Part shown: positions 5,276 through 35,025 of the stretch, piece after piece
Position numbering within the stretch: the stretch's first letter is position 1
Layout of the letters: each line of letters begins with the position of its first letter
From: Alphaproteobacteria bacterium
GTDB lineage: Bacteria; Pseudomonadota; Alphaproteobacteria; UBA6615
Reading direction: 5' to 3'
DNA: 48,419 nucleotides
Assembly (NCBI GenBank): GCA_965261975.1
Contig: CBDHEC010000016.1
Coordinates: 1 to 48,419 of the forward strand
The notes under the pieces: generated by a model
The model's input: only the letters and a program-made list of their open reading frames with translations
Database searches by the model: none
Told to the model about the DNA's origin: nothing
Translations under genes and position numbers: made by a program

Positions 5276-5296
5276 TCCGAAGGTTGGATACGTGAA

Positions 5297-5325
5297 TTGA
5301 CTCTTGTCTCCGGACTCACTTAAAT
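5297..5325 (+). promoter_or_regulatory. Sigma70-type promoter of the intergenic RNA
   Basis: TTGACT-N17-TTAAAT. Confidence 0.6.
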
Positions 5326-5331
5326 CGCGTC

Positions 5332-5557: not shown

Positions 5558-5580
5558 GCCCCGCCGGGTCCGGAATTGGG

Positions 5581-6129: not shown

Positions 6130-6197
6130 GGGTCGTCCTCCGCTTGTCGAGCGGGAAAGTCTCGGGCGACCCGGGGGGCGGAGTCAATCTCGGCTGG

Positions 6198-18484: not shown

Positions 18485-18593
18485 TCGCTTGAGCAAGTCG
18501 GTGTCCGTCCCGGCGTGGGAGGGTGCATCTATTCCGGGCAACAGCGTAACGGTGTGGTCTATTCGCCAAACCGAGTTTGGTCCCGGCTAGTTG

Positions 18594-20222: not shown

Positions 20223-20510
20223 GATGCACCGTTCGGTCTTTCGTTGGCGTGTTCGTGAACGACTGCTCACCCGGGCATTTGGCGACAGTCATTCGCTGGC
20301 CGCAGCCAGGAAAAAATTCTGCATTCGTGCGTGAGAACGTGGCTAGCATATTGATTTCGGAAAGTTTTTCAAGCTTCCGCGAGGGAGGTGCGGCCGCCTG
20401 CTTGCCAGTCTTTGCTTGTGCCGGTTGGGGGCTTCGCCGCCATTGGTGCCGGGGATCGGCGCTATCGGAGGGACGCGCCTGGCCTCGGCGCTGGATGGCC
20501 TGAAGCCGCG

Positions 20511-21263
20511 CTAACCGAAGCTTTGCACCAGGCTCCCGGCCACCAGATACCAGCCGTCGACCAGCACGAAGAAGATCAGCTTGAACGGCAGGGAAATCAT
20601 GATCGGTGGCAGCATCATCATGCCCATCGACATCAGGACCGATGCGACCACCATGTCGATGATCACGAAGGGCACAAACAGCAGGAAGCCGATCTCAAAG
20701 GCGCGGCGCAGTTCCGAAATCATGAAGGCGGGGATAAGCGCACGCAGCGGCGTGTCCTCGATGCTGTCCACGCTTTCGAGTTTCGCCATGTCCATGAACA
20801 GCCGCAGATCCTGCTGGCGCACATGCTGCAGCATGAAGTCCTTGATCGGGGCCATGGTCCGCTCAAACGCCTCGCCCTCGGAGATTTCCTCGGCGATCAG
20901 AGGCTGAATGCCCTGGTCGTAGGCGGCCTCCAGCGTGGGCGCCATGACGAAGGCCGTGAGAAACAGCGCCAGGCTGACCAGCACCGTGTTCGGCGGGGTT
21001 TGCTGGGTGCCGATGGCCGAACGAAGGAAGGCGAGCACCACCACGATGCGGGTGAAACTGGTCACCATCACGATGATCGAGGGGGCCAGGGAAAGGACCG
21101 TCAGGAGGGCAATGAACTGCACGACCCGGGCGGTCGTGGAGCCGCCGTCGCCGAAGTCCAGATTGAAGCTCTGAGCCTCGGCGATGCCGATCGAGCCGAG
21201 AAATCCGAGCTCCAGGCCACCCAGCGCGATGGCGTAGCGGTTCAAATGGCGGAGCCTGTTCAT
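20511..21263 (-). CDS. fliP: Flagellar export gate protein FliP
   Basis: TSFTRIVVVL, QQTPPN, PAFMISELRRAFEIGF, LMSMGMMMLPP, LPFKLIFFVLVDGW. Confidence 0.95.
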   Translation of the reverse strand: MNRLRHLNRYAIALGGLELGFLGSIGIAEAQSFNLDFGDGGSTTARVVQFIALLTVLSLAPSIIVMVTSFTRIVVVLAFLRSAIGTQQTPPNTVLVSLALFLTAFVMAPTLEAAYDQGIQPLIAEEISEGEAFERTMAPIKDFMLQHVRQQDLRLFMDMAKLESVDSIEDTPLRALIPAFMISELRRAFEIGFLLFVPFVIIDMVVASVLMSMGMMMLPPIMISLPFKLIFFVLVDGWYLVAGSLVQSFG

Positions 21264-21592
21264 TGTGCGGCCCCGCTCTGGGGCGAGTGGGATGCATCGA
21301 GATGCGCCGCGAAGTCGGCACCTTCCGTACCGTTCGGCTCGATGCCGGTCTCGACCACGGTTTCGCTGGTGGGCCCCAGCAGCAGCAGATGTTCCACGCC
21401 GTCCCGGCGCACCAGCACGAGGCGGCGCTTGGCATCGATATGCGACGCCTCGACCACCCCGAGCCGGCCCTTGCCCGCGCCGAGGGTTACCCGGCCGGCA
21501 CCGTAGCGCCGCAAGATCCATGCGAGGGCCGCGATCAGGCCGAGAACGACGACCAGGGCGAGGACAAAACGCAATCCGGAGACCAGATCCAT
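21260..21592 (-). CDS. fliO: Flagellar biosynthesis protein FliO
   Basis: N-terminal TM, RLGVVE..IDAKRRLVLVRRDGVEHLLLLG; overlaps the fliP start. Confidence 0.88.
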   Translation of the reverse strand: MDLVSGLRFVLALVVVLGLIAALAWILRRYGAGRVTLGAGKGRLGVVEASHIDAKRRLVLVRRDGVEHLLLLGPTSETVVETGIEPNGTEGADFAAHLDASHSPQSGAAQ

Positions 21593-21627
21593 AACCAGTA
21601 AAACCTTTAAGGGTAAGTCCTTGGGGC

Positions 21628-21972
21628 CTAGGCGTCGTCGTCCGGGTTCGCATCCGGCACGGTGATCGCCGCGCTGTGGTCCGTTCGGGTGGTCGAGGCC
21701 TCAGCGCGGGCGAGCTGGGCCGCGACTTCGGTCTGTTCGGCCTCGATCTCGGCGCGAATCTCGTTGAGCTGGCTCAGGAGGGTCTCGAGCTGCTCGCGGA
21801 CCTTGGGGATGTCGGCGCGGGGCAGCTCGACGGCCGATTTGCACGTCTCGGCGACTTTCAGGTTGAAGCTATCGAGGTCGACTTCCTGTCCGTCGCGCAT
21901 GGCGGCGCGGATGGTATCGAGGGAGTTCGTGGCGGTATCGAGATCCTCGCGGACCGCTTCGAGCGTGGGCAT
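21628..21972 (-). CDS. Hypothetical helical protein upstream of fliO
   Basis: 114-aa ORF with host-like codon usage, GGAG RBS, co-oriented with fliOP. Confidence 0.7.
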   Translation of the reverse strand: MPTLEAVREDLDTATNSLDTIRAAMRDGQEVDLDSFNLKVAETCKSAVELPRADIPKVREQLETLLSQLNEIRAEIEAEQTEVAAQLARAEASTTRTDHSAAITVPDANPDDDA

Positions 21973-22170
21973 CGTTCAGGACTCCAGATCGTTTTGAGAA
22001 TGGTTGAGGCCAGTCCGCGCGCACGTCCGCGGCCTGCGCAGGCAGGTGGCGTTGTCGGATATGAAGGGGCGAAACGCCCGGTCGTGCGATGGGGGTGGCA
22101 GGCACGCGTGCTTCTCGTTGCGTAGTTAAGCGGCCTTCTGCCGCACGCCCAGAGGATCGCGGATTATGCT

Positions 22171-22186
22171 TAAGGAGAGGTTAAGG
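22171..22186 (+). repeat. attL core (overlaps a TTAA-N7-TTAA CtrA-type box at 22170-22184)
   Basis: TAAGGAGAGGTTAAGG, identical to 33301-33316. Confidence 0.88.
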
Positions 22187-22222
22187 GCTCTTGCGTCAAC
22201 GCACGACATTGGAAGTCAATAT

Positions 22223-22245
22223 AAGCCGGTTATCCGGCTTTTTTT
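22223..22245 (+). terminator. Terminator-like hairpin between attL and the integrase
   Basis: AAGCCGG-ttat-CCGGCTT-TTTTT. Confidence 0.6.
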
Positions 22246-22287
22246 ATTGAATCACGTCAACGCTAAGACTATCTAAGTCACTCAAAC

Positions 22288-22309
22288 GTAGTACGTGGGT
22301 AATACGTGG
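22288..22309 (+). repeat. Tandem 11-bp arm-type integrase binding sites (left)
   Basis: GTAGTACGTGG GTAATACGTGG; related tandem pair at 33222-33243. Confidence 0.65.
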
Positions 22310-22317
22310 AGGGACAT

Positions 22318-23499
22318 ATGAGGCTGGCGTTGACACCCAAAATCATCCGCGACCTGAAGCCGAACCCCGGTGGCGGCGACTTGATCGTGACAGATGCGCT
22401 GCTGCCCGGATTCGGTGTCCGCGTCTATCCGTCAGGCCGCATGGCGTACTGGTGGAACTCGCGGCGAGAAGGTCGGCAGACGATCGGCCCCACAGATGAG
22501 TACACCCTCGACGAGGCGCGAGACGAAGCGCGCGAGAACAAGAAGCTCTACCGCAAGGGCATCAATGTCAGAAAACATAAAGCAGCCGAGATTGAAGCCA
22601 ACCTCGCAGCAGAGCGCCGGAGCGCGCTGACGATCAGCGTGGCTCTGGATGAGTACTTCAAGCACCGCACCGATTGGTCAGCAGCCACACAGAAGAACTA
22701 CGCCATCTGCCGCCGCTACATCGAGCTGGAGTTCGGTGACCAGCACCCAGCTGACCTGACGGCACCAGACTGGATCGCGGTCTTGGCCGAGTATCAGGAA
22801 ACGCAAGGCATCGCCAACAATATGCTGGCCGTAGCCAAAGGCATGTTTAAGTGGTTGACCACAGCGTCCGCTCACGCGCGCGACGTCACCACCAACCCGG
22901 TGCGCGATGTTTCAGCCAAGAGACTACCCGCTCGGACAAACTACTTGCTGCCACAGGACCTGAGGCGACTGTATGACGTTGTCGCGGACGATCGGAATCA
23001 GTTCGAGGCCGCCGCAATCCAGATGCTCATCCTGACGGCACGCCGCCCCAGCGAGATTCGAAAACTAGCGTGGGCTGAGATCGACTTCGACAAGGCCACG
23101 ATCACTATTCCGAGCGAGCGAACGAAGACAGGGACAGAAGACACGTTCCCGCTCACGCCGAGGATGGTTGCAATTCTCAAGAACGTGCCGCAGCACAACG
23201 GGCCGCTCGTGTTCTCGCGCGACGGCGGCCACACGCCGATCAGTCTCAATCTGGCTCGTGTGCGTGAGCTGCTTGGTGAGGTGCCTGACTTCACAGGCGA
23301 GTGGCGCTTCCACGATTTCCGTACCAGCCTCGGCACCGCTCTGGACGATGCGGACGCGCCCTTCCACGAGAAGGAGATCATGCTGTCACATTCCCTTGGC
23401 GCGCTGGACCGCACCTACAGCAGGTCCAATCGGCTTGGGGTCAAGACGAAGTGGCTGAAATGGTGGGACAGCACGATTTTTGGTGCCAATCATGCTTAG
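22318..23499 (+). CDS. Tyrosine recombinase/integrase with N-terminal arm-binding domain
   Basis: DALLPGFGVRVYPSG arm domain; catalytic R (TARRPSEI), K (RTKT), HDFR, H (LSHS), Y (RTYSR) all present. Confidence 0.95.
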   Translation: MRLALTPKIIRDLKPNPGGGDLIVTDALLPGFGVRVYPSGRMAYWWNSRREGRQTIGPTDEYTLDEARDEARENKKLYRKGINVRKHKAAEIEANLAAERRSALTISVALDEYFKHRTDWSAATQKNYAICRRYIELEFGDQHPADLTAPDWIAVLAEYQETQGIANNMLAVAKGMFKWLTTASAHARDVTTNPVRDVSAKRLPARTNYLLPQDLRRLYDVVADDRNQFEAAAIQMLILTARRPSEIRKLAWAEIDFDKATITIPSERTKTGTEDTFPLTPRMVAILKNVPQHNGPLVFSRDGGHTPISLNLARVRELLGEVPDFTGEWRFHDFRTSLGTALDDADAPFHEKEIMLSHSLGALDRTYSRSNRLGVKTKWLKWWDSTIFGANHA

Positions 23500-23944
23500 T
23501 GATGATCGCAAGCGTGAGCTACTGGCGTTGTGGCATCTGGATGAAAGTGAGCCGATCCCGCAGACGGACCGCGAGTGGCAGCTTGTCGAATTTGGATTGT
23601 TGGCGGCCAGCGGCACGCCCATGCGCGCGAACAGCGCTCATTTCGACCGTCTGCGCGTTGCGCTTCTTGTAGCCCGCCGTATGCGCGACGAAGGCCTGTC
23701 AGCAGGTGCTTGCGTCACCCTGCTTAGCGGCGTGATCGCTCGGCTTGATGAGCCCGAAGACCTCATCGGCGCAGATACGATGGCTGCTTGGACAACACGA
23801 AAAGCGAAGGGGTATCCGACACCCAATCAGCGCGTCAAAGCTGACATAGATAGCCTTGGCTTCTCCAGAATCGATGCCGATATCGCCGAGTGGGAGTCGC
23901 TCATGGGGCGATCGATCGCAGACGGCCTTCCCGAGGGCTGGTAA
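23492..23944 (+). CDS. Hypothetical protein of the element
   Basis: Start overlaps the integrase stop; 150 aa; no recognised motif. Confidence 0.65.
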   Translation: MLSDDRKRELLALWHLDESEPIPQTDREWQLVEFGLLAASGTPMRANSAHFDRLRVALLVARRMRDEGLSAGACVTLLSGVIARLDEPEDLIGADTMAAWTTRKAKGYPTPNQRVKADIDSLGFSRIDADIAEWESLMGRSIADGLPEGW

Positions 23945-24026
23945 CTGTAAACATATCTGCAATCCTTACACTGCTGTTTAGTGATGATACCGGCAGTCTC
24001 CGTGCGATCAATTCACGGAGACGGAC

Positions 24027-24209
24027 ATGCAGGTTCAAGAACGCGAATGGCTGACGCCACAGGAGGCCGCCGAATACCTTGCCGTATCGACCGGCACGCT
24101 GCGGCAGTGGCGCTATCTCGACTACGGGCCGAAGCCAGCTAAGCGCAAGCGCATCATTAGATACAGCAAGGCCGTCATCGACCGTTGGCTTGAAGACGGT
24201 CGGGGCTGA
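24027..24209 (+). CDS. AlpA/excisionase-like HTH protein
   Basis: WLTPQEAAEYLAVSTGTLRQWR..GPKP..IIRYSKAVIDRWL (HTH_17/AlpA pattern). Confidence 0.88.
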   Translation: MQVQEREWLTPQEAAEYLAVSTGTLRQWRYLDYGPKPAKRKRIIRYSKAVIDRWLEDGRG

Positions 24210-24212
24210 GCA

Positions 24213-25895
24213 ATGCCTGCTGGGGACCTCGCTGATCTTGCCGTTGAACTCGCCGAAGAACTCGGCCCGGTGTTTCCGTGCGCCGGTGACAAGTCACCGC
24301 TGACCGCGCACGGATTCAAAGACGCTTCGAGCGACCCTGACGAAATTTATTCCGCGTTTTTTGCCGCACCGAACGTCGCGCTCATCGGCGTCGCCACCGG
24401 CGACATCATCGCGGTCGATATTGATCGGAAAAACGGGAAGGACGGTTTTCGGTGGCCCGTGTTGGCGGAACTCCCGCTGACCCGAACGCAATCAACGCCG
24501 TCCGGTGGCGAACACCGGCTATACCGGTTGCCGCCGGGACGCCGGTTGCGTGGTTCGTTGAGCGGTCTGTTCGAAGGCATCGATATTAAGGCCGATGGCG
24601 GCTACATCGCGACCGGGCCCGGCTATCGATGGATCAATGATGAGGACATCGCGACGCTGACCGAGGCGCACTGCGAATTGCTCTCGCGACCAGCAAGGCT
24701 GCCGCTTTCGCAACAGGGCGTATCCGCCGAGGACATCGCCGGTATCGACCACGGCAACTGGCACGAGCCGGTGTTGCGGCTGGTGGGCAAGCTAGTCGCG
24801 AAGGGCATCGACGATCAGACGATCTTTGCGCTGACGGACCGGTTCACTCTGTCCGGCCACACGGTCGCCCAGACGCGTCTAGAAGTCGCTGAGATGATTT
24901 GTGGCGCGCGCGCGAAGGGTTGGGCTCCCGAAGTGCCGGAGACGCGCCAGACGCCGTTCCTGAATCCGCTGGACGTGTTTCTCGCTGACCCACCGGACTG
25001 GCGCGTAGAGGGGCTACTACCCGAGCGTGGTGTCGGCATCCTTGTCGGCGGTGAGGGGTCGGGAAAAACCTTCGTTGCGATCGACCTGTGCATGGCCATC
25101 GCAAACGGCACAGCCTACGCCAACAACTACCCTACGTCTCGCGGCCGGGTACTGTACGCCGCCGCAGAAGATCGGCTCGGGGTCGGCGCCCGTATCGTTG
25201 CGCATCATCAATGGTCGGGCCTTGGCGTCGAGGACATTGTCCTTTGGCGCGGTATCTCACTCGCCGACACCGCCGACATCGAGTTTCTGGAACAGTGCGG
25301 CGACCGGTTCGATTTCGTCGTGGTCGATACGTTGAGCAAGGCGACGCCCGGTCTGGATGAAAACAGCAATACAGAAATGGCGGCGGCTATCGACCGAGCC
25401 TATCGCCTAAGCGCGATCTGGGATGCCTTCGTGCTGCTGGTGGCGCATAGCGGCAAGGAAGCTAGCAAGGGTATCCGAGGCGCGTCTTCGCTGACGGCGA
25501 ACGTCGATACCGTTTTGAAGTGCTCGCGCCCGGGGCGCGGCAAACAGGTCGGCGTGACGCTGGCCAAACAGAAGTCAGGACCCGAAGGCGTAGCGCTCAA
25601 TTTCTCGTTTGAACCGGTCGAGGTCACGAACACCCGCACGGGCGAAGTCACGCCATCGTTGGTGGTTAAGCCTGCGGGTCGATCCGCTTCTGATCTCTGC
25701 CGCCTCGTTCTAGAGGAAGGCGAGATGTCGGTTCAGGAGGTGTTTGAGCGTGTTACTCGGCACTCCGTGGACCCGTGTTACTCGGGCGTTACCAAGGCGG
25801 CCGTGAAGCAGGCTCTGCATCGCATGGTCCAGTCGGGTGAAGCGGTGAATAGCGGCGGAAACTATGCGCTTTCCGCGGGCGGAGAGGTCGAATGA
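24213..25895 (+). CDS. Bifunctional primase-polymerase fused to an AAA_25/RepA-type helicase
   Basis: PVFPC..HGFKDAS..IGVATG..VDID..TPSGGEH (Prim-Pol); Walker A GGEGSGKT, Walker B VVVDTL, VAHSGK, RGASSL. Confidence 0.9.
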   Translation: MPAGDLADLAVELAEELGPVFPCAGDKSPLTAHGFKDASSDPDEIYSAFFAAPNVALIGVATGDIIAVDIDRKNGKDGFRWPVLAELPLTRTQSTPSGGEHRLYRLPPGRRLRGSLSGLFEGIDIKADGGYIATGPGYRWINDEDIATLTEAHCELLSRPARLPLSQQGVSAEDIAGIDHGNWHEPVLRLVGKLVAKGIDDQTIFALTDRFTLSGHTVAQTRLEVAEMICGARAKGWAPEVPETRQTPFLNPLDVFLADPPDWRVEGLLPERGVGILVGGEGSGKTFVAIDLCMAIANGTAYANNYPTSRGRVLYAAAEDRLGVGARIVAHHQWSGLGVEDIVLWRGISLADTADIEFLEQCGDRFDFVVVDTLSKATPGLDENSNTEMAAAIDRAYRLSAIWDAFVLLVAHSGKEASKGIRGASSLTANVDTVLKCSRPGRGKQVGVTLAKQKSGPEGVALNFSFEPVEVTNTRTGEVTPSLVVKPAGRSASDLCRLVLEEGEMSVQEVFERVTRHSVDPCYSGVTKAAVKQALHRMVQSGEAVNSGGNYALSAGGEVE

Positions 25896-25922
25896 CCGAG
25901 CCTCTCTTGCTCAATATCAGGT

Positions 25923-25985
25923 GTTACTACCCCGTTACTGGACCAGCAGTAACACCCCCCCTGTCTATAGACAGGGGCGTTACTG
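25923..25985. other. Putative replication origin: GTTACT iterons and a 20-bp perfect palindrome
   Basis: GTTACT at 25923, 25934, 25979 and inverted at 25948; CCCCTGTCTATAGACAGGGG at 25958-25977; further GTTAC copies in the 3' end of the primase gene. Confidence 0.6.
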
Positions 25986-26000
25986 GCGGAGGGGTCGGTA

Positions 26001-26393
26001 ATGGATAAAGACCGCCGCCGCTATTCGGTAATACCCATCCGAGCAGTCGGGCTTGTGAAGAAGGGCGAACATTGGCGCGTACTCGCTGCGCTGTGTTCCT
26101 ACACAAGTCCGTCCGGCGTGGCTTACCCAAACCAAACTACGCTCGGCGAAATGTGTCAGATGGGCCAGCCGCATGTCTCGCGGGCCATCAAAGAGTTGCA
26201 CCGGCTGGGGCTGGTTCGCCTCCTTCGGCCGAAAGGCAAGAAGCACAAACGCGCCTTCATGCGAGGCAATCGTTACCAAGTCTTATACGAGCCGAACGCG
26301 CCGCTTCCTTCTCCACTTGAAACTGAGATTGCGTGGAACAGCCGCACAAACCGCTGGCCCTCGCATCAGGACCGGGGAGGTACGGAGGGGTGA
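26001..26393 (+). CDS. Winged helix (HTH_36-like) DNA-binding protein, phage-type
   Basis: RVLAALCSY..GVAYPNQTTLGEMCQMGQPHVSRAIKELHRLGLV..NRYQV. Confidence 0.8.
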   Translation: MDKDRRRYSVIPIRAVGLVKKGEHWRVLAALCSYTSPSGVAYPNQTTLGEMCQMGQPHVSRAIKELHRLGLVRLLRPKGKKHKRAFMRGNRYQVLYEPNAPLPSPLETEIAWNSRTNRWPSHQDRGGTEG

Positions 26394-26690
26394 CGCGCGC
26401 TCTCTCACATTCACCAACAACCGCCGAAGCGCCAGCCTGCTTCACTCGGCGGCTAGCCCAGTCGGAACGCGACCCCCAGCGCGTTTCGGCTGGGCGCTTA
26501 ATTATCGATTACCCTGTGTTACAGCAAAATCAATGCGTTGTCGGTCGTGTATGTGACTGCGTACTACAGGCGCACCACAGGATGGCCAGCAGCGCGCAGA
26601 AAACCGACCCATTGCCCCCCGCCCCCCCCTGCGTCTGTGTAGAGGAGGGTGGCGCGTGATTTTCCCAATTTTCGACGAAAGGAACCCTTC

Positions 26691-27341
26691 ATGACTGAAC
26701 GCATAACCACGCTCGAGCGCGAGATCGAGGAGGCTCAGGCTGAAATCAACGCCGCCTCTTTGCTTGCCGCGACTGAACAAAGCACTCCGGCCGTGAGGCT
26801 GAAGAAAGCCCGGGCCATACTCGAGCAAAAGGAACTGTTGAAGCTCGCCCGACTAGAATTGGTCGAGCTGCGCAAGCAGGCGCGGGCCGAAGCCGAGGAA
26901 GCGGCTTTCGCCGAACGCTGCGGCAATCGCGAAGCAATTTGCGAAGCCGTGGATGAGATCGAGAAGGAATCGGCGGCCCTAGATAAAGCGCTCGCTAAGG
27001 CCGCGAAGCATTACACGGCGCTCGAGGACGGAGTGCGCTCGGTGCTTTCGTATGGCGAGAATGCGGAAGGCTTCGATCTGCGGACCTTCAAAACAGGGCA
27101 GCCGCTTCAAGCGCCATACAACTTCACGATTCATTGCCTAGCCGAACGGTTCGGGTGGGGGCCGTCGCATCATTTAGAGATGTGGCCCCGCCCGCATGGT
27201 CGAGACGAGGGGAAGGCGAGAGCGTTCGCCGACTTCCGAGCCGCGCGAGATGATTGGCGCTACCCGCCAGACGCAGAGCCGGAAGGTCCCGTTGAATTTG
27301 AAGAAGTAAGCCCGGAGGAGATGAACAATGCAGTTCTCTGA
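26691..27341 (+). CDS. Coiled-coil hypothetical protein
   Basis: AAGGA RBS; Ala/Glu/Leu-rich heptad pattern over the first ~120 aa. Confidence 0.75.
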   Translation: MTERITTLEREIEEAQAEINAASLLAATEQSTPAVRLKKARAILEQKELLKLARLELVELRKQARAEAEEAAFAERCGNREAICEAVDEIEKESAALDKALAKAAKHYTALEDGVRSVLSYGENAEGFDLRTFKTGQPLQAPYNFTIHCLAERFGWGPSHHLEMWPRPHGRDEGKARAFADFRAARDDWRYPPDAEPEGPVEFEEVSPEEMNNAVL

Positions 27342-27840
27342 AATCGTATCGTCCCATAAGCCGCTGGAAAGCCTTGTGCGGCTTGCGCTGGCCACCAAGG
27401 GCGTCACCGTAACCGACGGTACTGTGGACAGGTACGCGTCACTCCTCGAGGCGGCCATCCTCGCGGATGACGGCGAAAGCCTTGAGGGGAACGTTTGGCA
27501 GAGTTTCATCGACGGTATCGATGGATCGTCTAAGTACGAAGCGGCGATCCGGTCCATTGGCGAGACACTCGGAGCGTCGTCGAGCGAGATCGCCCAGTTC
27601 ATGGCCGTCAGCAACGCTACGATCGATGCGCTCACCGGAACGCCGATTGAGGAAGCAGAGCGTTTCCTTGCCGATGACTTTGACGCCATCACGCCGACCG
27701 CGGCGGAACCTTACTCTCACCTCGATGACCAGAGCAGGGTCGTCGCTATGGAAGTGGACCGCGCACTCGGTGCGCCAGATCCATCGCGTCCCGAGCCGTC
27801 ACATCTTGCAGAAAGCGATGGGGGCGATGATGCGGAATGA
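27328..27840 (+). CDS. Acidic hypothetical protein
   Basis: GGAGGAG RBS; overlaps the upstream gene; very D/E-rich. Confidence 0.72.
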   Translation: MQFSEIVSSHKPLESLVRLALATKGVTVTDGTVDRYASLLEAAILADDGESLEGNVWQSFIDGIDGSSKYEAAIRSIGETLGASSSEIAQFMAVSNATIDALTGTPIEEAERFLADDFDAITPTAAEPYSHLDDQSRVVAMEVDRALGAPDPSRPEPSHLAESDGGDDAE

Positions 27841-28057
27841 AATGCTCAGGTGGTCGTTCACGTTAAAGGTCGGTGTACTTGAACCCTATACGGACCTCAC
27901 CGCACAGCTGCAGGGCGCGGACGAGTTCCCGTCATTACAGGACGAAGTGTTAGAGGCTGTTGAAGAGGTCATCCAGCGCAGGGCAGGCACCATGAAGGGT
28001 CTAGCGCAGGTGCGGGTGCTGGATGTGGAGCGAGCGAACGTGAAGGCTCTTGTATGA
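27827..28057 (+). CDS. Small hypothetical protein
   Basis: MMRNEMLRWSFTLKV..; overlaps the previous stop; last gene of the co-oriented backbone. Confidence 0.6.
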   Translation: MMRNEMLRWSFTLKVGVLEPYTDLTAQLQGADEFPSLQDEVLEAVEEVIQRRAGTMKGLAQVRVLDVERANVKALV

Positions 28058-28084
28058 GACGGGCTACTGCGTGGCGCAGCTGGA

Positions 28085-28591
28085 TTACCCTTGGCTGGGG
28101 AGCTCCCCAGTTTGGAGAAACCGAACAGCGTTATCGGTGTCTTCAATCAATACTGCGCCCTTTTCGGTTGCCTTCTCTATCTTCGACCAGCCCGGCGAAG
28201 ACCCAACAAGTAAAACTGATACTTTTTTCGTAACATTTGTCCGAACAATGAATTTGCCGCTCTCCTCAGCGAGTGCTTTTAGGTAATCCTTGTCCTCATC
28301 GCTGTAGCCGGTAATGCAAATCTCCGTTTTAGAGCCGTCATTTTGCTCTACCCGAAATCTGGGCGGCCTAGGCGGCATAATTGTGTAGTTCTTTTGCTGT
28401 TCGCTGGCCTCTCTTATGGCGGCATCTAGGTTTTCGTGATACGCCACAATCCTACTTTTGTTGAACTGCTTCCACTTGTTGGCAACTAGATCTCTACCTT
28501 CAACGTGCTTGTCGGTCTCATTGGTTACCTCAATGTGATAACCTTTGACCTCGTTCTTGCTGTTTTTATAAGTGATGTAGATTTCAGCCAT
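28085..28591 (-). CDS. WYL-like N-terminal domain plus BRCT domain protein
   Basis: ITYKNSKNEV..VEGRD..KQFNKSRI (WYL-like); EICITGYS..VRTNVTKKVSVLLVGSSPGWSKIEKATEKGAVLI (BRCT). Confidence 0.75.
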   Translation of the reverse strand: MAEIYITYKNSKNEVKGYHIEVTNETDKHVEGRDLVANKWKQFNKSRIVAYHENLDAAIREASEQQKNYTIMPPRPPRFRVEQNDGSKTEICITGYSDEDKDYLKALAEESGKFIVRTNVTKKVSVLLVGSSPGWSKIEKATEKGAVLIEDTDNAVRFLQTGELPSQG

Positions 28592-28772
28592 CGCTTACAC
28601 TCCCTCGATGCGCGCTCTTAGACAGACATTTCGCCCTCGAGGCGATCATCAATGCGGTGATAGAGGTGCGCGTTCTCATCGGAAAAGCCTACAGGCGCGG
28701 GCAAAACGCTGGCAACCGTTTCGCCCAAGCTTCACCAGCCGATACAAAAACAAAAATTGAAGGTAATCCAAG

Positions 28773-29225
28773 ATGTTTGGTTTATTCGCGTCTAAACGGA
28801 CGAAATTTGCAAAGAAGGGGAAAAATCTCTTTGACGTATATATCCCCTCTTTGAAAGGCATGACCTCATCCGAGATAGGCTTCGTCCTCGCGCAAGCGGT
28901 GCAAATCAAAGATGCATCCACGATGCACGGTTCCAAGGAAGATTTGGTCACCGTGTTTCATGACCCAATGTTGTTGCCTGAAACTGAGGCGTTTGAAACG
29001 TTGCGCCTTTGGGAGCGTCATATGCTGTCCCTAAATGGATCTTTAGAAGGAAGGGCGAAGGCGGCGTCTCTATCCATTTGGTATTTATCTGTTATTGCAT
29101 GCCAAATCCCTGAATTGAGGGTTCGCGGCCGAGAGATGTGGGCGGAGTTACAAAGAGGATATGAAGAGGCAAGTTTTAACCCCGACGAAGACGCTGTAAT
29201 CGGTTTGGAACCTGACTATCAGTAA
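28773..29225 (+). CDS. Hypothetical cargo protein
   Basis: 150-aa low-GC ORF with AAGG RBS. Confidence 0.7.
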   Translation: MFGLFASKRTKFAKKGKNLFDVYIPSLKGMTSSEIGFVLAQAVQIKDASTMHGSKEDLVTVFHDPMLLPETEAFETLRLWERHMLSLNGSLEGRAKAASLSIWYLSVIACQIPELRVRGREMWAELQRGYEEASFNPDEDAVIGLEPDYQ

Positions 29226-29449
29226 ACCCTTATCATGACCCGGGCGGGATCAAAACTGGTTCTGAGAAGGACAGGCAGGCGCTTTTCTCTTTGAAAGAGC
29301 TTGTTGTTTGGAACCAAACCCGCCTACCTCATTCGAATATGCGTCGGCCCATTTAAAATCGGCTGGATGTGGGTTTTTTTATGCTTCTATACCGCACCAC
29401 TATCCGTTGATAACCGTCGCCTGACGGTGATCAAGATACTTGATACTTG

Positions 29450-30217
29450 TTATCCTTGATCTATAAGTAGGCCGAATATTTTCATATCGCGTTCAAAATA
29501 ACTTTGAAGTTCGCGTAACTTCTCTGAATTTTTCTCCGTCTCACTCAAGTATTCTGCAGCCAGCGCCGCCATGCCCTCCTCGTCGCCATCTTCAGGCATA
29601 GGTCTATCAGCTAATGCCCCACTGACGGCAGAAATATAGATGGGATTATCGCCAACATCTTTTTGAAAATGGGCTAATGAAATTAGACTAATAGTGAGGT
29701 TTTCTTTCAGTTTTTTATCACCTAACTTGGCCGCAGTGATAAGACAAGATGCGATCTTTTCTTTTGGGTGTGGCAATAGCTTTTCGTCATAAAACGCGAT
29801 AGAGCTATCCTTATGCTTCATCATACAAAACCCGAAATCCGATATGACCTCTTCAGTCGTGGCGATCGCATCAGCACCGATATTTCTCAGGGCTAGTCCC
29901 CTCGGGGTAAATAAAAATCCGACAATGAATCCAGTGACGACCCATACCCATCCACTGATATTGAATTCGAATACTTTTATGTGATATCCCGTATATTCAA
30001 TCCAAATTATTACGGCAGTTAAACCAATTAATGCAAAAATTAATGTTGGAAAAATATCTCTTTTATTACCATAAAAAACGGAGCGTAACGTTGAGCCCAA
30101 GCAAACTGCAACGAGTGGATTTAGGAGACCCGACCACCCAAGGCTAGAAAAGAATGTATCAAATACAGGAATACTTGTAAAAAATACGATAACAACATAC
30201 ACCATGATAATAAACAT
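29450..30217 (-). CDS. Cargo membrane protein (about 4 N-terminal TM plus soluble C-terminal domain)
   Basis: AGGAG RBS, very low GC, hydrophobic first ~105 aa. Confidence 0.75.
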   Translation of the reverse strand: MFIIMVYVVIVFFTSIPVFDTFFSSLGWSGLLNPLVAVCLGSTLRSVFYGNKRDIFPTLIFALIGLTAVIIWIEYTGYHIKVFEFNISGWVWVVTGFIVGFLFTPRGLALRNIGADAIATTEEVISDFGFCMMKHKDSSIAFYDEKLLPHPKEKIASCLITAAKLGDKKLKENLTISLISLAHFQKDVGDNPIYISAVSGALADRPMPEDGDEEGMAALAAEYLSETEKNSEKLRELQSYFERDMKIFGLLIDQG

Positions 30218-30364
30218 GAATGACGCTCCTTAGCTCGAGTGCTTAGATTCTAACGTATGTCTGAAAAAAATTCTTGGAATCCGAATTTAATCTTCTTTCG
30301 GAAGCCGTTTGACGGCTACCTAACGTAGACACGCGAACCAGAATTGTGGATGAACCTCCAATCA

Positions 30365-30589
30365 TCAGGAATCACCCGAGTTCGGCACCTGCTTCTCAGC
30401 GACGTTACCGCAGACAGAGCAGGTGAACCGCTGCTGGATGTAGTCAACGTCGGGCCTCCCATCTTCCAGCCAGTCAGCAGGAATGACTTCCTCCCACTGG
30501 CCGCATGGTTGGCAATGGAGGGCAAGGGTCATGCCGGAACCGGCAAGGCCGGAGATGGTGCTTATGGTGATGGGGGTTTGGTCGAGCAT
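30365..30589 (-). CDS. Small zinc-binding protein (CxxC...CxxC)
   Basis: LHCQPCG and FTCSVCG pairs in 74 aa. Confidence 0.6.
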   Translation of the reverse strand: MLDQTPITISTISGLAGSGMTLALHCQPCGQWEEVIPADWLEDGRPDVDYIQQRFTCSVCGNVAEKQVPNSGDS

Positions 30590-30717
30590 GGGGTCAGTTT
30601 GGCGCCCCTGAGCGAGGCAGGCTACGTCGCCTAAAGGGTAATAGTGGATATCCTTCGAAGAACACGGAGTCCTCGCGAGGGTTTTTTATTCCAAATAGAT
30701 AAAGGGTATTCAGGTCA

Positions 30718-30987
30718 TTAAATCAGAAAATTTAACCCAAAACCTATTGCAGCAGAAATTCCACAGGTTACCACTCCAGAGATAAATAAACTCAATAAAA
30801 AATTCTTAAAAACATTGGTTTCCGATGCTGAGGAAAGGCGTCTCAAATGTTCTATTCTAAATAAATAATAACCCGGAACATAGATTAATGCGGTTATAAT
30901 AAGAAGAGGCCAATAATCTTGGTAGAAGCCAATAAAACCGCTACCGATTACGGATATCCATAATATTAATGCACCAACTGACCTCAT
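30718..30987 (-). CDS. Small cargo membrane protein (about 3 TM)
   Basis: Low GC, hydrophobic, GGGGAA RBS before MRSVG. Confidence 0.65.
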   Translation of the reverse strand: MRSVGALILWISVIGSGFIGFYQDYWPLLIITALIYVPGYYLFRIEHLRRLSSASETNVFKNFLLSLFISGVVTCGISAAIGFGLNFLI

Positions 30988-31009
30988 AAGATTCCCCCGA
31001 AAAAACCAG

Positions 31010-31303
31010 TTACCCCGTTGCCACATACAGCACTAACCCCGCCATTACGAAAAAGCCCCCTAGCAATAGGCTTGCGAGATTAACCCAAAGCCGATGCAAG
31101 CGGGATTTCATTAATCCTTTCCGCCTGAGCCATCTAGCCATGACGAAACGGAAAATTAATGCCAACAGTACCCAGACCGTTACTGCGGGGGCTGTGTCAA
31201 TAAATTCTAGGGCTTTATTAATGAGCGCGGGATCCTCACCGCCGACTTCAACAAGGTCTTTGCCGATGACGGATGTGTCGGCTTTTCGAAAAAAGAAGGA
31301 CAT
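31010..31303 (-). CDS. Small cargo membrane protein (2 TM)
   Basis: Two hydrophobic segments; start uncertain. Confidence 0.55.
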   Translation of the reverse strand: MSFFFRKADTSVIGKDLVEVGGEDPALINKALEFIDTAPAVTVWVLLALIFRFVMARWLRRKGLMKSRLHRLWVNLASLLLGGFFVMAGLVLYVATG

Positions 31304-31330
31304 TCGGTCAGCGTTTACAAGTTGTAACTA

Positions 31331-31368
31331 ACGCCCACGGCGCGCGCGCCGGATACGCAGGCCGAGCT
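31331..31368 (+). repeat. 38-bp direct repeat, copy 1
   Basis: ACGCCCACGGCGCGCGCGCCGGATACGCAGGCCGAGCT; 36/38 identical to 31904-31941. Confidence 0.9.
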
Positions 31369-31429
31369 GTCCCGGGGTGCACAGGGCGACGAGCTTCAGG
31401 TGTAGGGCGCGAACTGACATCGACTGGCG

Positions 31430-31759
31430 TTACTTCTTGAACTCGATCTCCAGAGCCACGACATCAACATCGCCGATGTTGGTCGCATTGTGCTCGACAG
31501 GCGCGATCACCATGCTTGACGTGCCATGCACATAGTCCACCTGCTTTGAAGAGCCGTCAGGGAAGTCGAAATGCAATTTCCCAGCCGATAGCTGGATCGG
31601 CATGTAGTTCATTTCGTGCCGATGCCACCCAGTCTGCTCACCGGGCTTGAATACCCAGTGGGTGACGATCATCTGATCGTCCTCCATCAGCACCTTATGC
31701 GTGGCGATAGGTCTGTCCGCAGCTTCGTCGGCTGTCTTCTCGGCTAACTTTGTGGACAT
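31430..31759 (-). CDS. Cupin-domain protein (cargo)
   Basis: WVFKPGEQTGWHRHEMNY, VEHNATN. Confidence 0.85.
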   Translation of the reverse strand: MSTKLAEKTADEAADRPIATHKVLMEDDQMIVTHWVFKPGEQTGWHRHEMNYMPIQLSAGKLHFDFPDGSSKQVDYVHGTSSMVIAPVEHNATNIGDVDVVALEIEFKK

Positions 31760-31903
31760 GATGCTTCTCCATTTCTAAAGCGCCAAAATTGTTATCAAAG
31801 AAGACGGAACCTGCAAGGTCCGACATAGTGCTGTCGGAAATGAGTGGCTTGGGAGTCATGCGGCCATCCAAGCGGCCAGACACCCGAAGAGTATCTAACG
31901 ACC

Positions 31904-31941
31904 ACGCCCACGGCGCGCGTTCCGGATACGCAGGCCGAGCT
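31904..31941 (+). repeat. 38-bp direct repeat, copy 2
   Basis: ACGCCCACGGCGCGCGTTCCGGATACGCAGGCCGAGCT. Confidence 0.9.
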
Positions 31942-32179
31942 TGATCACCTTACCGGCGATGCGGGCGGTCCGAACGGCGAAACGAGCGGCTTTGAGAGGT
32001 GGCATGGGGCTTTTCCCGAAAAACTAATCGAGATTTTGAATTTCACAATTAGCGTAATCAACGACCTCAGACGCGAAGTTAGCCGCATCAGAGGCATACT
32101 GTTTGAGTTTCCTGACATAGTCGTCAACGTCAGATTGGTATTGTCTGATATCGGATTGCTAAGCGTGCGCTGTGAACGC

Positions 32180-32764
32180 TTATGGCAATGCGGTTGCGCG
32201 GGCAAGTTGCTCCTCGATGGCGCTCACAACCTTTTCAGAGGTCGGCGAGGTTACGGATGAAAACCACCCGACCAATTTGCCGTCTGGTGCAATCAGGTAT
32301 TTGTGGAAGTTCCAACGCGGCTTCGACAGAGGGCTAAAATGGGTGGCGGCCCACTGGTAAAAGGGATGCGCCTTTTCGCCCCGCACATGAACCTTCTCAG
32401 TCATTGGGAAATCGATCCCGTAATTCACTTCACAGAATTGCTTGATCTCGTCCTCTGTGCCCGGCTCCTGTCCACCGAAGTCGTTCGAGGGCACAGCCAA
32501 GACCACGAGTCCCTTGTCGCGGTAGCGCGCCCACAGATCAGCAAGTGCGGAATATTGTGACGTAAAACCGCATTGGGATGCCGAGTTCACTACGAGCACG
32601 GCTTTGCCTGCGAATTGAGCGAGAGGGAGTGGATCACCCTCGATTGCTATAAAGCTGAAATCGTGGGCGCTAGGCACGCCGCCCTCCGCCGCCTGAACAG
32701 GGCCGGAAAACAACGCACACAACGCTATGACTAAAATTTTGCACGGTGAAACGGGGGCTCGCAT
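32180..32764 (-). CDS. Glutathione peroxidase family protein (Cys type, signal peptide)
   Basis: VVNSASQCGFT, PSNDFGGQEPG, PRWNFHKYLI. Confidence 0.92.
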   Translation of the reverse strand: MRAPVSPCKILVIALCALFSGPVQAAEGGVPSAHDFSFIAIEGDPLPLAQFAGKAVLVVNSASQCGFTSQYSALADLWARYRDKGLVVLAVPSNDFGGQEPGTEDEIKQFCEVNYGIDFPMTEKVHVRGEKAHPFYQWAATHFSPLSKPRWNFHKYLIAPDGKLVGWFSSVTSPTSEKVVSAIEEQLARATALP

Positions 32765-33221
32765 AAGTTTCGCTTCAAATCACACTAGATAAATTTGATA
32801 CGGTCCGATTTAGGCGCTGGATTACGAGCGCGCATCAATTGCCCAATCACGACGCTGGACAACGATCACCTGAAGTGGGAGCCGTTCATCCCATTTCAGG
32901 AGAAGGTGTCGTCAGCAATCGACGGCGCACTCGTTGAGCTGGTGCCTCAGGGGCGCGGGATCGTCTCGATCGAGTTGTTAGCCGAGGACAAGTTCGAGGT
33001 GGGGTCATGAGCAAGCGTCGCCCACTGCACCTTGCTGACTGATCCGCGCCCGTGCAATTCGTCGTTCTGGCGAATTGTTGAGTCAGTTTGATGCTAGGGG
33101 TGGAGATCGCAGCAAAAGGGTCGGTGCCGACCCTTTTGGTCAACGCCATGTCGCCGAACAAGCGGGGATGTCCAAGGATCAGAAAAAGTAGGGGCCCCAT
33201 ACTTTTTCTTTTGTTCTCACA

Positions 33222-33243
33222 GTAGTCCGCGTGTAGTACGCGC
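33222..33243 (+). repeat. Tandem 11-bp arm-type sites (right)
   Basis: GTAGTCCGCGT GTAGTACGCGC, similar to the left pair. Confidence 0.6.
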
Positions 33244-33272
33244 ATCATTTAAGAAAATATTTTTTGTAACAA

Positions 33273-33285
33273 TATCAATTATTTA
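33273..33285 (+). promoter_or_regulatory. IHF consensus site between the arm sites and the attR core
   Basis: TATCAA-TTAT-TTA matches WATCAANNNNTTR in an AT-rich tract. Confidence 0.6.
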
Positions 33286-33300
33286 TGAAGAAAAATATCG

Positions 33301-33316
33301 TAAGGAGAGGTTAAGG
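33301..33316 (+). repeat. attR core
   Basis: TAAGGAGAGGTTAAGG; GC returns to host level immediately after. Confidence 0.88.
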
Positions 33317-33339
33317 ATGTTTGCCCGGCCGGGCGGTCC

Positions 33340-33585
33340 CTAGTCGGCGGGGCCGTCGTTCGCCTCGTCGGCACCATCCGTGTCAATGCCGCCCGTATCC
33401 GAGGCCGCGCCTTCGCCGGCCTTCTCGGCCTGGATGCGCTCATAGACCTCTTGGCGATAGACCGAGACGTCTTCGGGGAAGGTCAGGCCGAGCTTGATCG
33501 ATTTGCCGCGCACATCGACGACCGTCACTTCGATGTCGTCGTTGATGATGATCGAGTCACCGATTTTTCGCGTCAGATAAAGCAT
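33340..33585 (-). CDS. csrA: Carbon storage regulator CsrA/RsmA
   Basis: MLYLTRKIGDSIIINDDIEVTVVDV..IKLG..PEDVSVYRQEVYERIQ. Confidence 0.9.
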   Translation of the reverse strand: MLYLTRKIGDSIIINDDIEVTVVDVRGKSIKLGLTFPEDVSVYRQEVYERIQAEKAGEGAASDTGGIDTDGADEANDGPAD

Positions 33586-33674
33586 GTCCCCATCGGCGGT
33601 CCGATGCTGCCGGTCTTACGTGACCCGCTCGGTTCCGCCGCACCTCCCCTGCGGTTGGGTTCAGCTTATACCGC

Positions 33675-33740
33675 TTTACCGTTTGTTAATAGCGCGCCGT
33701 GATACTGGCCGAAATCGATAAAGTTTTCGGCAAATTTGCC
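33675..33740. promoter_or_regulatory. CtrA-like box and FlbD ftr-like palindrome between csrA and flgB
   Basis: TTTA-CCGTTTG-TTAA (33675-33689); GGCAAATTTGCC (33729-33740). Confidence 0.45.
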
Positions 33741-33794
33741 ATTTTCGCGCGTTCGGAACTGCCTGCCCGGCGCGCGATGCTCACGGGACTGCCT

Positions 33795-34208
33795 ATGGAT
33801 TTCAATAATCTTCCCGTTCTGCAGATGATGACCAAGAAGATGTCCTGGTTGTCGCATCGCACCGAGATCATCTCGCAGAATGTCGCCCATGGCGATACGC
33901 CTTGTTTCAAGGCCAAGGATCTCAAGCAAGTGAGTTTCCGGGATCTTGTGCGCAAGGAAGGGAACCAAAACGGTTTCCCGCCAAACCGCACCCACGGGAC
34001 CCACCTGGTCGGCCTGCAGGCGCGCACGCCGTTCGCCACCGAGGGTGCACCGGATGCCCATGAGACCACCCTCGACAAGAACGATGTCAGCATCGAGCAG
34101 CAGCTGACCAAGCTTGGCGAGACCCAGATGGCCTACCAAACCACGCTTAATCTCTATCGCAAGCATCTCGAGTTGCTGCGCACGGCACTGACCCGGCCGG
34201 GTCGCTAG
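33795..34208 (+). CDS. flgB: Flagellar basal-body rod protein FlgB
   Basis: WLSHRTEIISQNVAHGDTP.FKAKDL; NDVSIEQQL; order flgB-flgC-fliE. Confidence 0.9.
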   Translation: MDFNNLPVLQMMTKKMSWLSHRTEIISQNVAHGDTPCFKAKDLKQVSFRDLVRKEGNQNGFPPNRTHGTHLVGLQARTPFATEGAPDAHETTLDKNDVSIEQQLTKLGETQMAYQTTLNLYRKHLELLRTALTRPGR

Positions 34209-34246
34209 CCGCGTGGCTCGTAAACCGGGAATGAGGAAACTCGCCA

Positions 34247-34657
34247 ATGTCTGATCTCAACAAGGCCATGCATATCGCCGCATCGGGCATGCTCGCCCAG
34301 AATGTGCGTGTGCGCGTGATCTCCCAGAACATCGCCAACGTCGACAGTTTGGCGACCAGCCCGAACCAGTTGCCCTATCAGAGACAGACCGTGAGTTTCC
34401 GCAACGTGTTCGATCGCGCGCTCGACACGGACAAGGTCGAGGTCCACGACATCGGTGTCGACAATTCGGAATTCAGCCGCCGCTTCGAGCCGGGGCATCC
34501 GGCCGCCGACGAGACGGGTTATGTGCTGCTGCCGAACGTTAAAACGATGATCGAGATGGTCGATCTTCGCGCCGCACAGCGCAGCTACCAGGCCAACCTG
34601 CGGGTTGTCGATGTCGCTCGCACGATGGTGTCGCGCACGCTGGAGCTCCTGCAATAA
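34247..34657 (+). CDS. flgC: Flagellar basal-body rod protein FlgC
   Basis: ISQNIANVDS, PYQRQ, FEPGHPAADETGYVLLPNV, AQRSYQANL. Confidence 0.95.
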   Translation: MSDLNKAMHIAASGMLAQNVRVRVISQNIANVDSLATSPNQLPYQRQTVSFRNVFDRALDTDKVEVHDIGVDNSEFSRRFEPGHPAADETGYVLLPNVKTMIEMVDLRAAQRSYQANLRVVDVARTMVSRTLELLQ

Positions 34658-34719
34658 CGATCCATAGTCCCTTTCCGTTCAACCACTAGCCGGCGATCCC
34701 TTGCCACGGGAGTTTTCGC

Positions 34720-35025
34720 ATGACTGCCAATCTCACAAGCGCCATCGGTGCCTACACAAACGCCGCCCGCGGCGGCGCCGGGGTCGAACCCCGACCTCAG
34801 GAAGCGGGCCAGAGTTTCTCCGACCTGGTCCAATCCGCCGCCGAAGGCGCATTGCAATCCGGTCTGCGGGCCGAGGCAGTAACCCTTGAAGCCATTGACG
34901 GCAGTGCGGAGGTCTCGGAAGTGGTGACCGCCATCGCCGATGCCGAGATGGCGCTGCAGACGGTCGTCGCCATGCGCGACCAGGTCGTCGCGGCCTATCA
35001 GGAAATTCTTCGTATGCCGATCTAG
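34720..35025 (+). CDS. fliE: Flagellar hook-basal body protein FliE
   Basis: VVTAIADAEMALQTVVAMRDQVVAAYQEILRMPI. Confidence 0.95.
   Translation: MTANLTSAIGAYTNAARGGAGVEPRPQEAGQSFSDLVQSAAEGALQSGLRAEAVTLEAIDGSAEVSEVVTAIADAEMALQTVVAMRDQVVAAYQEILRMPI

Follow-up and report, generated by a model that had tools for sequence, protein, structure and literature searches.

An integrative replicon in a flagellar gene cluster of a marine alphaproteobacterium, and the modular family to which it belongs

Islands that encode little beyond their own integration and replication make up a large and poorly understood share of bacterial mobile DNA, and how they travel is known for very few of them, such as PICMI in Vibrio. 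The stretch of 48,419 nucleotides (nt) analysed here, called the window (contig CBDHEC010000016.1 of assembly GCA_965261975.1, from an alphaproteobacterium of the GTDB group UBA6615), carries an island of this type among its flagellar genes, and raises the question of what kind of element it is and by which vehicle it leaves its host. An earlier note, made from the letters of the sequence, had read it as an intact phage satellite of a possibly undescribed family, dependent on a helper phage or a gene transfer agent (GTA). The island is, we are nearly certain, an intact, mobile integrative replicon. The reading that we prefer, with a probability of roughly 0.45, is that of a self-replicating integrative element without transfer machinery, a hitcher whose most likely vehicle would be a phage particle, as for PICMI and the VEIMEs. 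It offers a clean case outside Vibrio, with exact ends, empty sites, a 6.1-kb minimal family member, natural module swaps and a sign of the excised form in seawater.

The ends of the island are two exact copies of a 16-bp direct repeat, TAAGGAGAGGTTAAGG, the only ones in the window (Table 1), as the earlier note had reported; none of 100 shuffled sequences gave such a match, even with 2 mismatches tolerated. The left flank was matched in 22 of the 41 genomes searched, and to its last base in three genomes of the same genus (G010, G011 and G004). In these three the left flank (window 20509-22186) and the right flank (window 33301-34802, as aligned in G010) abut with a single copy of the core between them, and the island is therefore 22187-33316, 11,130 bp including one core. 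G010 has the empty attB that had been predicted without a single difference, and G011 and G004 have it in slightly altered form, which speaks against the region being fixed chromosome for which an empty site is never found. Site-specific recombination at the core, between csrA and orf114-fliP, produced the insertion, inside a flagellar gene cluster as had been claimed: fliP and a 114-residue coiled-coil open reading frame (ORF) lie to the left, and csrA, flgC, fliE, fliQ and further export genes to the right.

Among the listed sequencing runs, one (X1) holds 98% of the sampled words of the island and may be its source sample, and 21 others (seawater, estuary, salt marsh) hold 8-14%; no RNA run with island words is among them. 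Contigs of four of the 24 listed runs were compared with the island, parts of which (e.g. 29.1-30.0 kb) are without cover in X2, X3 and X6. One X2 contig (549 nt, depth 17.3) covers 32977-33100, 33196-33303 and then 22268-22387, with 94 letters between 33303 and 22268, exactly the 13 + 81 = 94 letters that an attP or a head-to-tail joint predicts. This contig is 80-98% identical to the window and therefore comes from a relative. A relative exists, then, whose right end is joined to its left end, and a joint of the attP type, which had been proposed for a search, has been seen at the exact spacing, in an assembly contig. Depth at the junction falls among the values for the other X2 contigs of the element (4.5-18.7) and the flank bins reach at most 1.6; these are contig depths and not copy numbers, and the contrast is only a hint. 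The empty site in the three congeners and the attP-type junction from an independent metagenome run together bear out that the element is bounded and intact.

The backbone described in the earlier note (int, an orphan gene, alpA/xis, a primase-polymerase/helicase gene, an origin, a winged helix-turn-helix (wHTH) gene and three orphans) was found where it had been placed, all on the plus strand. The integrase matches PF13356 (Arm-DNA-bind_3, 1.7e-10), PF00589 (Phage_integrase, 8.7e-14) and phrog_1 (3.3e-50), and the AlpA-type regulator matches PF12728 (HTH_17, 1.1e-9), phrog_66 (1.7e-8), TIGR01764 and the PHROG excisionase/regulator families. The primase-helicase is a single protein in which a PrimPol domain (residues 10-149; PF09250 Prim-Pol, 2.7e-21) is followed by a RepA-type AAA_25 helicase (residues 259-417; PF13481, 1.5e-28) and a C-terminal small DNA-binding-like domain, with a weak match to PF22798. 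Its full-length relatives number 16 among 5.8 billion clusters, at 43-92% identity and nearly all on short metagenome contigs; a search of genome contigs with the single protein gave relatives of at most 37% identity.

The claimed origin proved to contain a real iteron cluster: of the 10 GTTACT/AGTAAC hexamers in the window, six fall within 25752-25984, beside a perfect 10+10 palindrome with the halves CCCCTGTCTA and TAGACAGGGG. Direct copies, an inverted copy, the C-run/TATA/G-run palindrome and a further copy follow one another in this order, as they do in all six metagenome relatives read and in the family genome G047. The iteron word changes with the identity of the helicase to that of the window, from GTTACT or GTAACT (57-71%) to GTCACA (35%) and GGACAA (27%). 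It thus tracks the helicase and not the wHTH protein, which is 95% identical in G047, suggesting that the primase-helicase is likely the origin binder, through its C-terminal domain. P4 alpha, a replicase that binds its origin via a C-terminal domain, is the analogue. P4 alpha and SaPI Pri-Rep each join primase, helicase and a C-terminal DNA-binding part in one protein, with iterons close by; the island resembles them in this protein, in the iterons near its gene and in the AlpA gene upstream. It has no sequence match to the P4 genes psu, delta, sid or epsilon (Pfam, PHROGs). The model of the 216-residue orphan, a helical hairpin, did align to P4 Sid at Z 8.6, at rank 50 among many unrelated hairpins.

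A metagenome search for the primase-helicase gave 80 loci. The full backbone order, including the iterons, a spacer of ~300 nt and homologues of all three orphans, is present at L051/L052 (59% identity) and L063 (35%), and parts of it at L050, L058 and L060. The element at L063 lies between two copies, 12.5 kb apart, of a 53-nt sequence from the 3' part of tRNA-Arg(CCT), and carries a Toprim domain in place of the window's PrimPol. A profile of the 170-residue orphan was matched in one of 401 genomes of the class, the window's own, and in six of 46 family genomes counting G000. The copy in G047 is intact, those in G049 and G050 have stop codons, and G003 and G054 hold fragments. In G047, a perfect 60-nt tRNA-Gly(GCC) repeat, 6,094 bp apart, encloses int, HTH_17, an AAA_25 helicase, repeats, wHTH, the three orphans and one further ORF; this element is complete, which gives the family a minimal form of 6.1 kb. 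The earlier note had asked for syntenic elements, and they were found in metagenome contigs and in G047; with three protein profiles none was found in IMG/VR.

Between the window and G047 the wHTH protein is 95% identical and the three orphans 84, 78 and 70%, whereas the helicase is 27% and the integrase 25% identical. Relatives with the same backbone occupy tRNA-Gly and tRNA-Arg genes, behind other integrases. These figures show that modules of the backbone are swapped between elements, int and helicase being exchanged while wHTH and the orphans are kept, and the natural swaps separate the replicase-origin pair from the constant orphan module. Three observations stand beside these relatives. 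A circularity check of the 80 loci found a terminal overlap (139 nt) only in L084, a distant relative by its helicase (34%), which at 17,590 bp probably assembles as a circle. Just outside the tRNA-Arg-bounded element of L063, beside a partial tRNA copy, an 807-residue TIR-domain protein is encoded (4640-7063), which may belong to a neighbouring defence island at the same tRNA. The family has left another decayed trace in genus g11: an isolated fragment in a 161-residue open frame (G051:C11:16991-17368, L044) that matches residues 305-430 of the primase-helicase at 70-75% identity.

Could the island itself be decayed, a prophage fragment or a fixed chromosomal segment that has lost its mobility? 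Two frames of its right arm look like gene remnants, and the copies in G049, G050, G003 and G054 show that family members do decay. In the window, however, the repeats are exact, the nine backbone frames are open and co-linear with those of relatives, and no structural gene or remnant is present; with the empty site in three congeners and the joined form in an independent run, this makes decay, which the earlier note had named as refuting, scarcely credible.

The part of the backbone that stays constant begins with the wHTH gene, the most conserved of the family, whose product resembles the N-terminal domain of O/DnaD-type initiators (PHROG O-like initiator families). The non-coding spacer after it has an RNA fold z of -3.57, none of 200 shuffles being equally stable, and a segment of ~170 nt within it (~26425-26591) gives way to other sequence in G047 and also in an X3 contig, which skips 174 letters and has 193 between. 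Then come the three orphans, which overlap by 14 nt and then by about 11-14 nt. For the first (216 residues) 35 relatives were found, including 27 of full length that are 75-87% identical, and 42 representatives in 1.84 billion proteins; its AlphaFold 2 (AF2) model is a long helical hairpin with a small helical domain (pLDDT 74). The second (170 residues) has 72 other clusters at 56-84% identity and no usable match in the protein atlas, and its AF2 model is an all-alpha domain (pLDDT 81, pTM 0.68). The last (~76 residues) is 46% identical to L051:9688-9927. None of the three matches a Pfam, PHROG or NCBIfam family. The search of the backbone proteins by profile and structure, as the earlier note had proposed, thus gave families for int, AlpA, the primase-helicase and wHTH, and for the orphans none, with no specific fold for the two that were modelled.

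Which known system comes into question? PICMI, in the part of its description drawn on here, packs int, a gene that overlaps it and that excision requires, alpA, prim and a hotspot for cargo into 6.1 kb, with no packaging gene (PMC10803314). Measured against that part, the island shares a marine host, the co-oriented int, overlapping small gene, AlpA-type regulator and primase with distal variable cargo, the lack of a capsid, terminase, remodelling gene or repressor, the size of a family member (6.1 kb in G047, 6.11 kb in PICMI115) and a joined or concatemer-type junction, here one metagenome contig (PMC10803314). The co-localised int, alpA and prim that are mandatory in PICMI lie within 3.6 kb on one strand (PMC10803314). 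The primase, however, is PF09250 + PF13481 only and not the DUF3987 (PF13148)/DUF5906 (PF19263) of PICMI, and the site is not the end of fis: the island lies beside csrA at TTAA-N7-TTAA, and its relatives in tRNA genes (PMC10803314). The island also has the extra conserved module of wHTH, non-coding spacer and three orphans, and the hosts described for PICMI are Vibrionaceae, whereas that of the island is an alphaproteobacterium (PMC10803314). In PICMI a helper phage induces excision, replication and packaging as a concatemer (PMC10803314); for the island the one pointer to such a cycle is the attP-type joint of a single metagenome contig. For PICI, SatelliteFinder, as given in the sections of PMC10085698 used here, asks for at least four of int, alpA, primase-replicase, small terminase and a capsid-morphogenesis gene; the island has three of the five, with no terS or morphogenesis family matched in Pfam or PHROGs at E<=0.01.

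The VEIMEs, according to the portion of their description considered here, are defined by concatemers inside virions (PMC9618062). The island resembles them in its marine origin, tyrosine integrase, primase/helicase and AlpA and in having no capsid genes, and several of their modules have alphaproteobacterial hosts; it differs in being known from genome and metagenome contigs, and may coincide with a listed VEIME (PMC9618062). With tycheposons, in the text of that source at hand, the gene map shares an integrase that faces inward from one end, an adjacent small replication module and environment/defence cargo, and the family shares tRNA targets in relatives and swapped integrase and replication modules (10.1101/2020.12.28.424599). 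This is a comparison of layout, what defines tycheposons being an integrase lineage and hallmark profiles peculiar to them (10.1101/2020.12.28.424599), and the island differs in the P4/SXT-type arm-binding domain of its integrase and in the target of the window copy, which is not a tRNA. As to the earlier note's proviso that the element might belong to an already defined family, it falls outside the PICMI and PICI models. A literature search by words, not by the orphan proteins, found no description of the island's family, and none of its signature proteins falls into a Pfam, PHROG or NCBIfam family or has phage or plasmid relatives. As had been suspected, the family of the island is an undescribed one, and it is modular. 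What is new here lies in the constant orphan module, in the swapping of modules and in the att site, and the kind of element is already known.

What the island does not encode bears on how it travels. No virion, terminase, relaxase or repressor family was matched in it at E<=0.01 (Pfam, PHROGs, NCBIfam, PADLOC), in keeping with what had been noted of capsid, portal, terminase, relaxase and repressor; its 16 ORFs include no virion structural or lysis gene (PHROGs, Pfam), and no type IV secretion gene was found in it. The absence of transfer machinery makes it a hitcher. The host assembly, 94.6% complete, has six tyrosine recombinases. Searched alongside controls that matched, Caulobacter among them, it gave no Phage_capsid (HK97), Phage_portal, Terminase_6N or TerL_ATPase, and no T4SS-DNA_transf (PF02534), Relaxase (PF03432) or CagE_TrbE_VirB (PF03135). 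GTAs are common in Alphaproteobacteria, and one relative of the 170-residue protein is labelled MAG Alphaproteobacteria bacterium by NCBI; against dispersal by a host GTA stand the missing capsid, portal and two terminase families and the size of the minimal relative, which at 6.1 kb exceeds the ~4 kb that RcGTA-type heads hold, and we regard it as very improbable. Of the satellite that the earlier note had proposed, the gene grammar, which is that of minimal satellites, is upheld, and a GTA or a resident prophage as its helper is unlikely. The assembly showing no prophage, the helper would be an incoming and probably virulent phage. The cargo is of the accessory type, with a BRCT gene shared with P2-like phages in the island and an Mrr-type nuclease at L051, which agrees with the preferred reading.

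A free circle may do without a helper. The island could be a cargo shuttle that excises, persists transiently as a plasmid-like circle and spreads by vesicles, natural transformation or generalised transduction, as is proposed for cargo-carrying tycheposons in the part of that source used here (10.1101/2020.12.28.424599). Monomers of such elements occur in marine vesicle fractions, going by the excerpted text of PMC11876622, the attP-type contig fits a free circle equally well, and the backbone has no phage-derived gene. Partition or stability genes, on the other hand, were not found in the island (Pfam, NCBIfam), and the direct coupling of AlpA to the replicase is the logic of satellite induction, as the PICMI description has it in the part referred to (PMC10803314). 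Moreover, identity stays at 70-95% in the orphan trio and its regulator while int and helicase are exchanged, which points to a specific conserved partner or a task beyond replication. We consider a shuttle without a dedicated helper unlikely, though to be taken seriously.

Conjugative mobilisation of the iOriT type would make the spacer hairpin after wHTH an oriT and the orphans accessory proteins of the relaxosome. More than 1,500 islands with an oriT and no relaxase are reported in the portion of 10.64898/2026.01.13.699239 used here, and the 16-bp hairpin of the spacer is perfect and lies beside conserved sequence. The island has no relaxase family, though, and the assembly no coupling protein, MobA-type relaxase or VirB4 family; a complete primase-helicase replicon is not needed by such elements, and relatives of the primase-helicase are on only 12 of 72,556 plasmid records, partial and at most 40% identical. 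This route is distinctly unlikely.

Several results weigh against the phage-borne hitcher that we prefer. With no terS, capsid, portal or scaffold family in the island, nothing ties the family to virions, and with no capsid, portal or terminase match in the assembly no helper can be named. The 216- and 170-residue proteins have no relatives in 50,697 phage records. Neither are the signature proteins in IMG/VR, which as a collection of contigs called viral carries little weight, and the primase-helicase finds there helicase-domain matches only, at 38% or less. Fold searches gave generic hairpin matches for the 216-residue model and no match for the 170-residue model (best Z 6.0). The full replication module also fits plasmid-like persistence, and the attP-type joint is a single short assembly contig, whose joint a tandem pair or a plasmid-like circle would give as well.

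A bolder version of the phage-borne reading is quite possible but doubtful. It holds that the island represents a new minimal-satellite family of marine Alphaproteobacteria with the 6.1-kb form as its minimum, that the constant part (wHTH, a replaceable non-coding segment as candidate packaging or recognition signal, and three coupled orphans, at least one of unmatched fold) would be a hitherto unseen module for helper interaction, that int and replicase are swapped around it, and that the core of this copy is TTAA-N7-TTAA upstream of the flagellar export operon. In the cycle that goes with the preferred reading, int, the int-overlapping 154-residue protein and AlpA would excise a circle. The C-terminal domain of the PrimPol-helicase would bind the GTTACT iterons just 3' of its own gene, and the enzyme would then unwind and prime there, like P4 alpha or SaPI Pri-Rep, giving multicopy circles or concatemers. 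The wHTH protein would regulate the three translationally coupled orphan genes, and the trio and the variable non-coding segment are the best candidates for dealing with the helper (sensing, packaging signal, interference). The distal end would serve as a swap zone for cargo. If the orphan module were indeed the helper interface, the island would show what minimal satellite packaging needs without any phage-derived gene.

The target of this copy deserves a description of its own. The core with its preceding T reads TTAA-N7-TTAA (22170-22184), the only perfect occurrence in the window (8 of 100 shuffles also reach one), and lies at the end of a ~90-nt non-coding element, for which 16 of the 45 other genomes of the family have a match to the element by itself. 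Across 14 aligned relatives of this element the TTAA half-sites are conserved, with variation in the seven intervening bases; such inverted half-sites around a 7-bp spacer have the look of a tyrosine recombinase core. The duplication of 16 bp leaves the host element complete at attL, where the insertion regenerated both the core and the entire conserved element, while the first half-site of attR reads GTAA. The element (window 22095-22186; L206-L220) ends GATTATGCTTAAG-N6-TTAAG and is present in at least three genera; in genus g11 its last TTAAGG is the 5' half of a GC-rich hairpin. Rfam gave nothing on the window at gathering score, with only terminator-like chance matches near attL, and ARAGORN gave no tRNA there. 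A structured small RNA at attB was considered and dropped, RNAalifold giving -3.4 kcal/mol on the 14 relatives and none of the 5 predicted pairs being compensated; the element is read instead as a probable protein-binding or leader sequence of orf114-fliP. TTAA-N7-TTAA is also reminiscent of the CtrA box, but a regulon pattern could not be shown and the idea was set aside.

A second strain-specific indel lies directly left of fliP: some 2 kb (window 18487-20508, GC near 0.54), encoding a 558-residue FG-GAP-repeat protein, is swapped for ~750 bp of other sequence in G010 and G011, where 18133-18486 and 20509 onward align.

Table 1. Features of the island and its insertion site, in window coordinates.
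Feature	Coordinates	Strand	Basis or remark
Conserved host non-coding element beside attB	22095-22170	.	minus-strand upstream of 114-aa ORF and fliP
attL core, 16-bp direct repeat TAAGGAGAGGTTAAGG	22171-22186	+	sequence, empty-site comparison
Left arm	22194-22295	+	k-mer comparison of island ends, terminator scan
Tyrosine integrase with N-terminal arm-binding domain (P4/SXT type)	22306-23499	+	PF13356, PF00589, phrog_1
int-overlapping orphan gene, 154 aa	23480-23944	+	probable ATG 23492, 8-nt overlap with int
AlpA/excisionase-type HTH_17 regulator	24027-24209	+	4 nt upstream of primase-helicase gene
PrimPol + AAA_25 helicase	24213-25895	+	PF09250, PF13481, weak PF22798
Putative origin: six GTTACT/AGTAAC iterons and palindrome	25752-26000	+	repeat count
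wHTH protein, 130 aa, HTH_36	26001-26393	+	PF13730 5.4e-7; phrog_270/391
Conserved non-coding spacer with 16-bp hairpin (26456-26495)	26394-26690	+	fold, hairpin scan
Orphan protein, 216 aa, family signature gene	26691-27341	+	no family
Orphan acidic protein, 170 aa, all-alpha, overlaps both neighbours	27328-27840	+	no family
Orphan small protein, ~76 aa, last backbone gene	~27827-28057	+	no Pfam
BRCT-domain cargo protein, 168 aa	28085-28591	-	PF12738 2.6e-5; phrog_2561 4.2e-22
Low-GC cargo without families: 150 aa (+), 255 aa (-), 102 aa (-), 97 aa (-)	28773-31303	mixed	ORF map
Cupin	31430-31759	-	PF07883 8.8e-5
Exported glutathione peroxidase	32180-32764	-	PF00255 1.1e-35
Right arm: two short conserved frames without ATG, then AT-rich end	32795-33300	+	conservation
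attR core, other copy of TAAGGAGAGGTTAAGG	33301-33316	+	sequence, empty-site comparison

At the left end of the island, GTCAACGC is present twice, at 22195 and 22256, and it is found once more at 33139; GTAGTACG is at 22288 and 33233; both words are candidate arm-type or Xis sites. The terminator scan placed an intrinsic terminator at 22223-22247, just inside attL. Homologues of the 154-residue int-overlapping gene follow int directly at L050, L051, L046, L058 and L060, with an overlap of 4 nt at L051 and L046. The protein has no Pfam, PHROG or NCBIfam family and only unnamed clusters in the protein atlas, and by its position, which is that of iolg in PICMI, it is a putative excision cofactor.

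Beyond the backbone, the ~5 kb of mostly low-GC cargo that had been pointed out is confirmed by a GC of 0.43-0.56 over 28.06-33.3 kb, compared with ~0.60 for the backbone and 0.62-0.68 for the greater part of the window. The host gains from the island a glutathione peroxidase, a cupin, membrane proteins and a phage-type BRCT protein, with its flagellar promoter region left intact. The 255-, 102- and 97-residue cargo proteins have hydrophobic stretches by eye. Relatives of the BRCT protein are encoded in 18 phage records at 25-30% identity, 17 of them covering at least 80% of the query, mostly of P2-like phages with Burkholderia, Escherichia, Yersinia or Vibrio as hosts; the gene of Escherichia phage 500465-1 (Peduoviridae) lies between a transcriptional-regulator gene beside the tail genes and host-type genes, and the protein may be an accessory or defence gene product. 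PADLOC found no defence system in the island, only a weak HTH match (mad1) and a weak BRCT match.

The right arm is 73% identical in nucleotides and 82% in amino acids to the decayed copy of G054 (L226 488-841), and is covered at 89-98% identity by the X2 junction contig. Its two short frames (window 32795-33190) are probably gene remnants; the second resembles the N-terminal portion of a longer DNA-binding protein, with an early stop. Among the cargo of the relative at L051/L052, a 267-residue protein (L051 10515-11318) has a hydrophobic N-terminal part and an Mrr_cat nuclease domain (3.3e-20).

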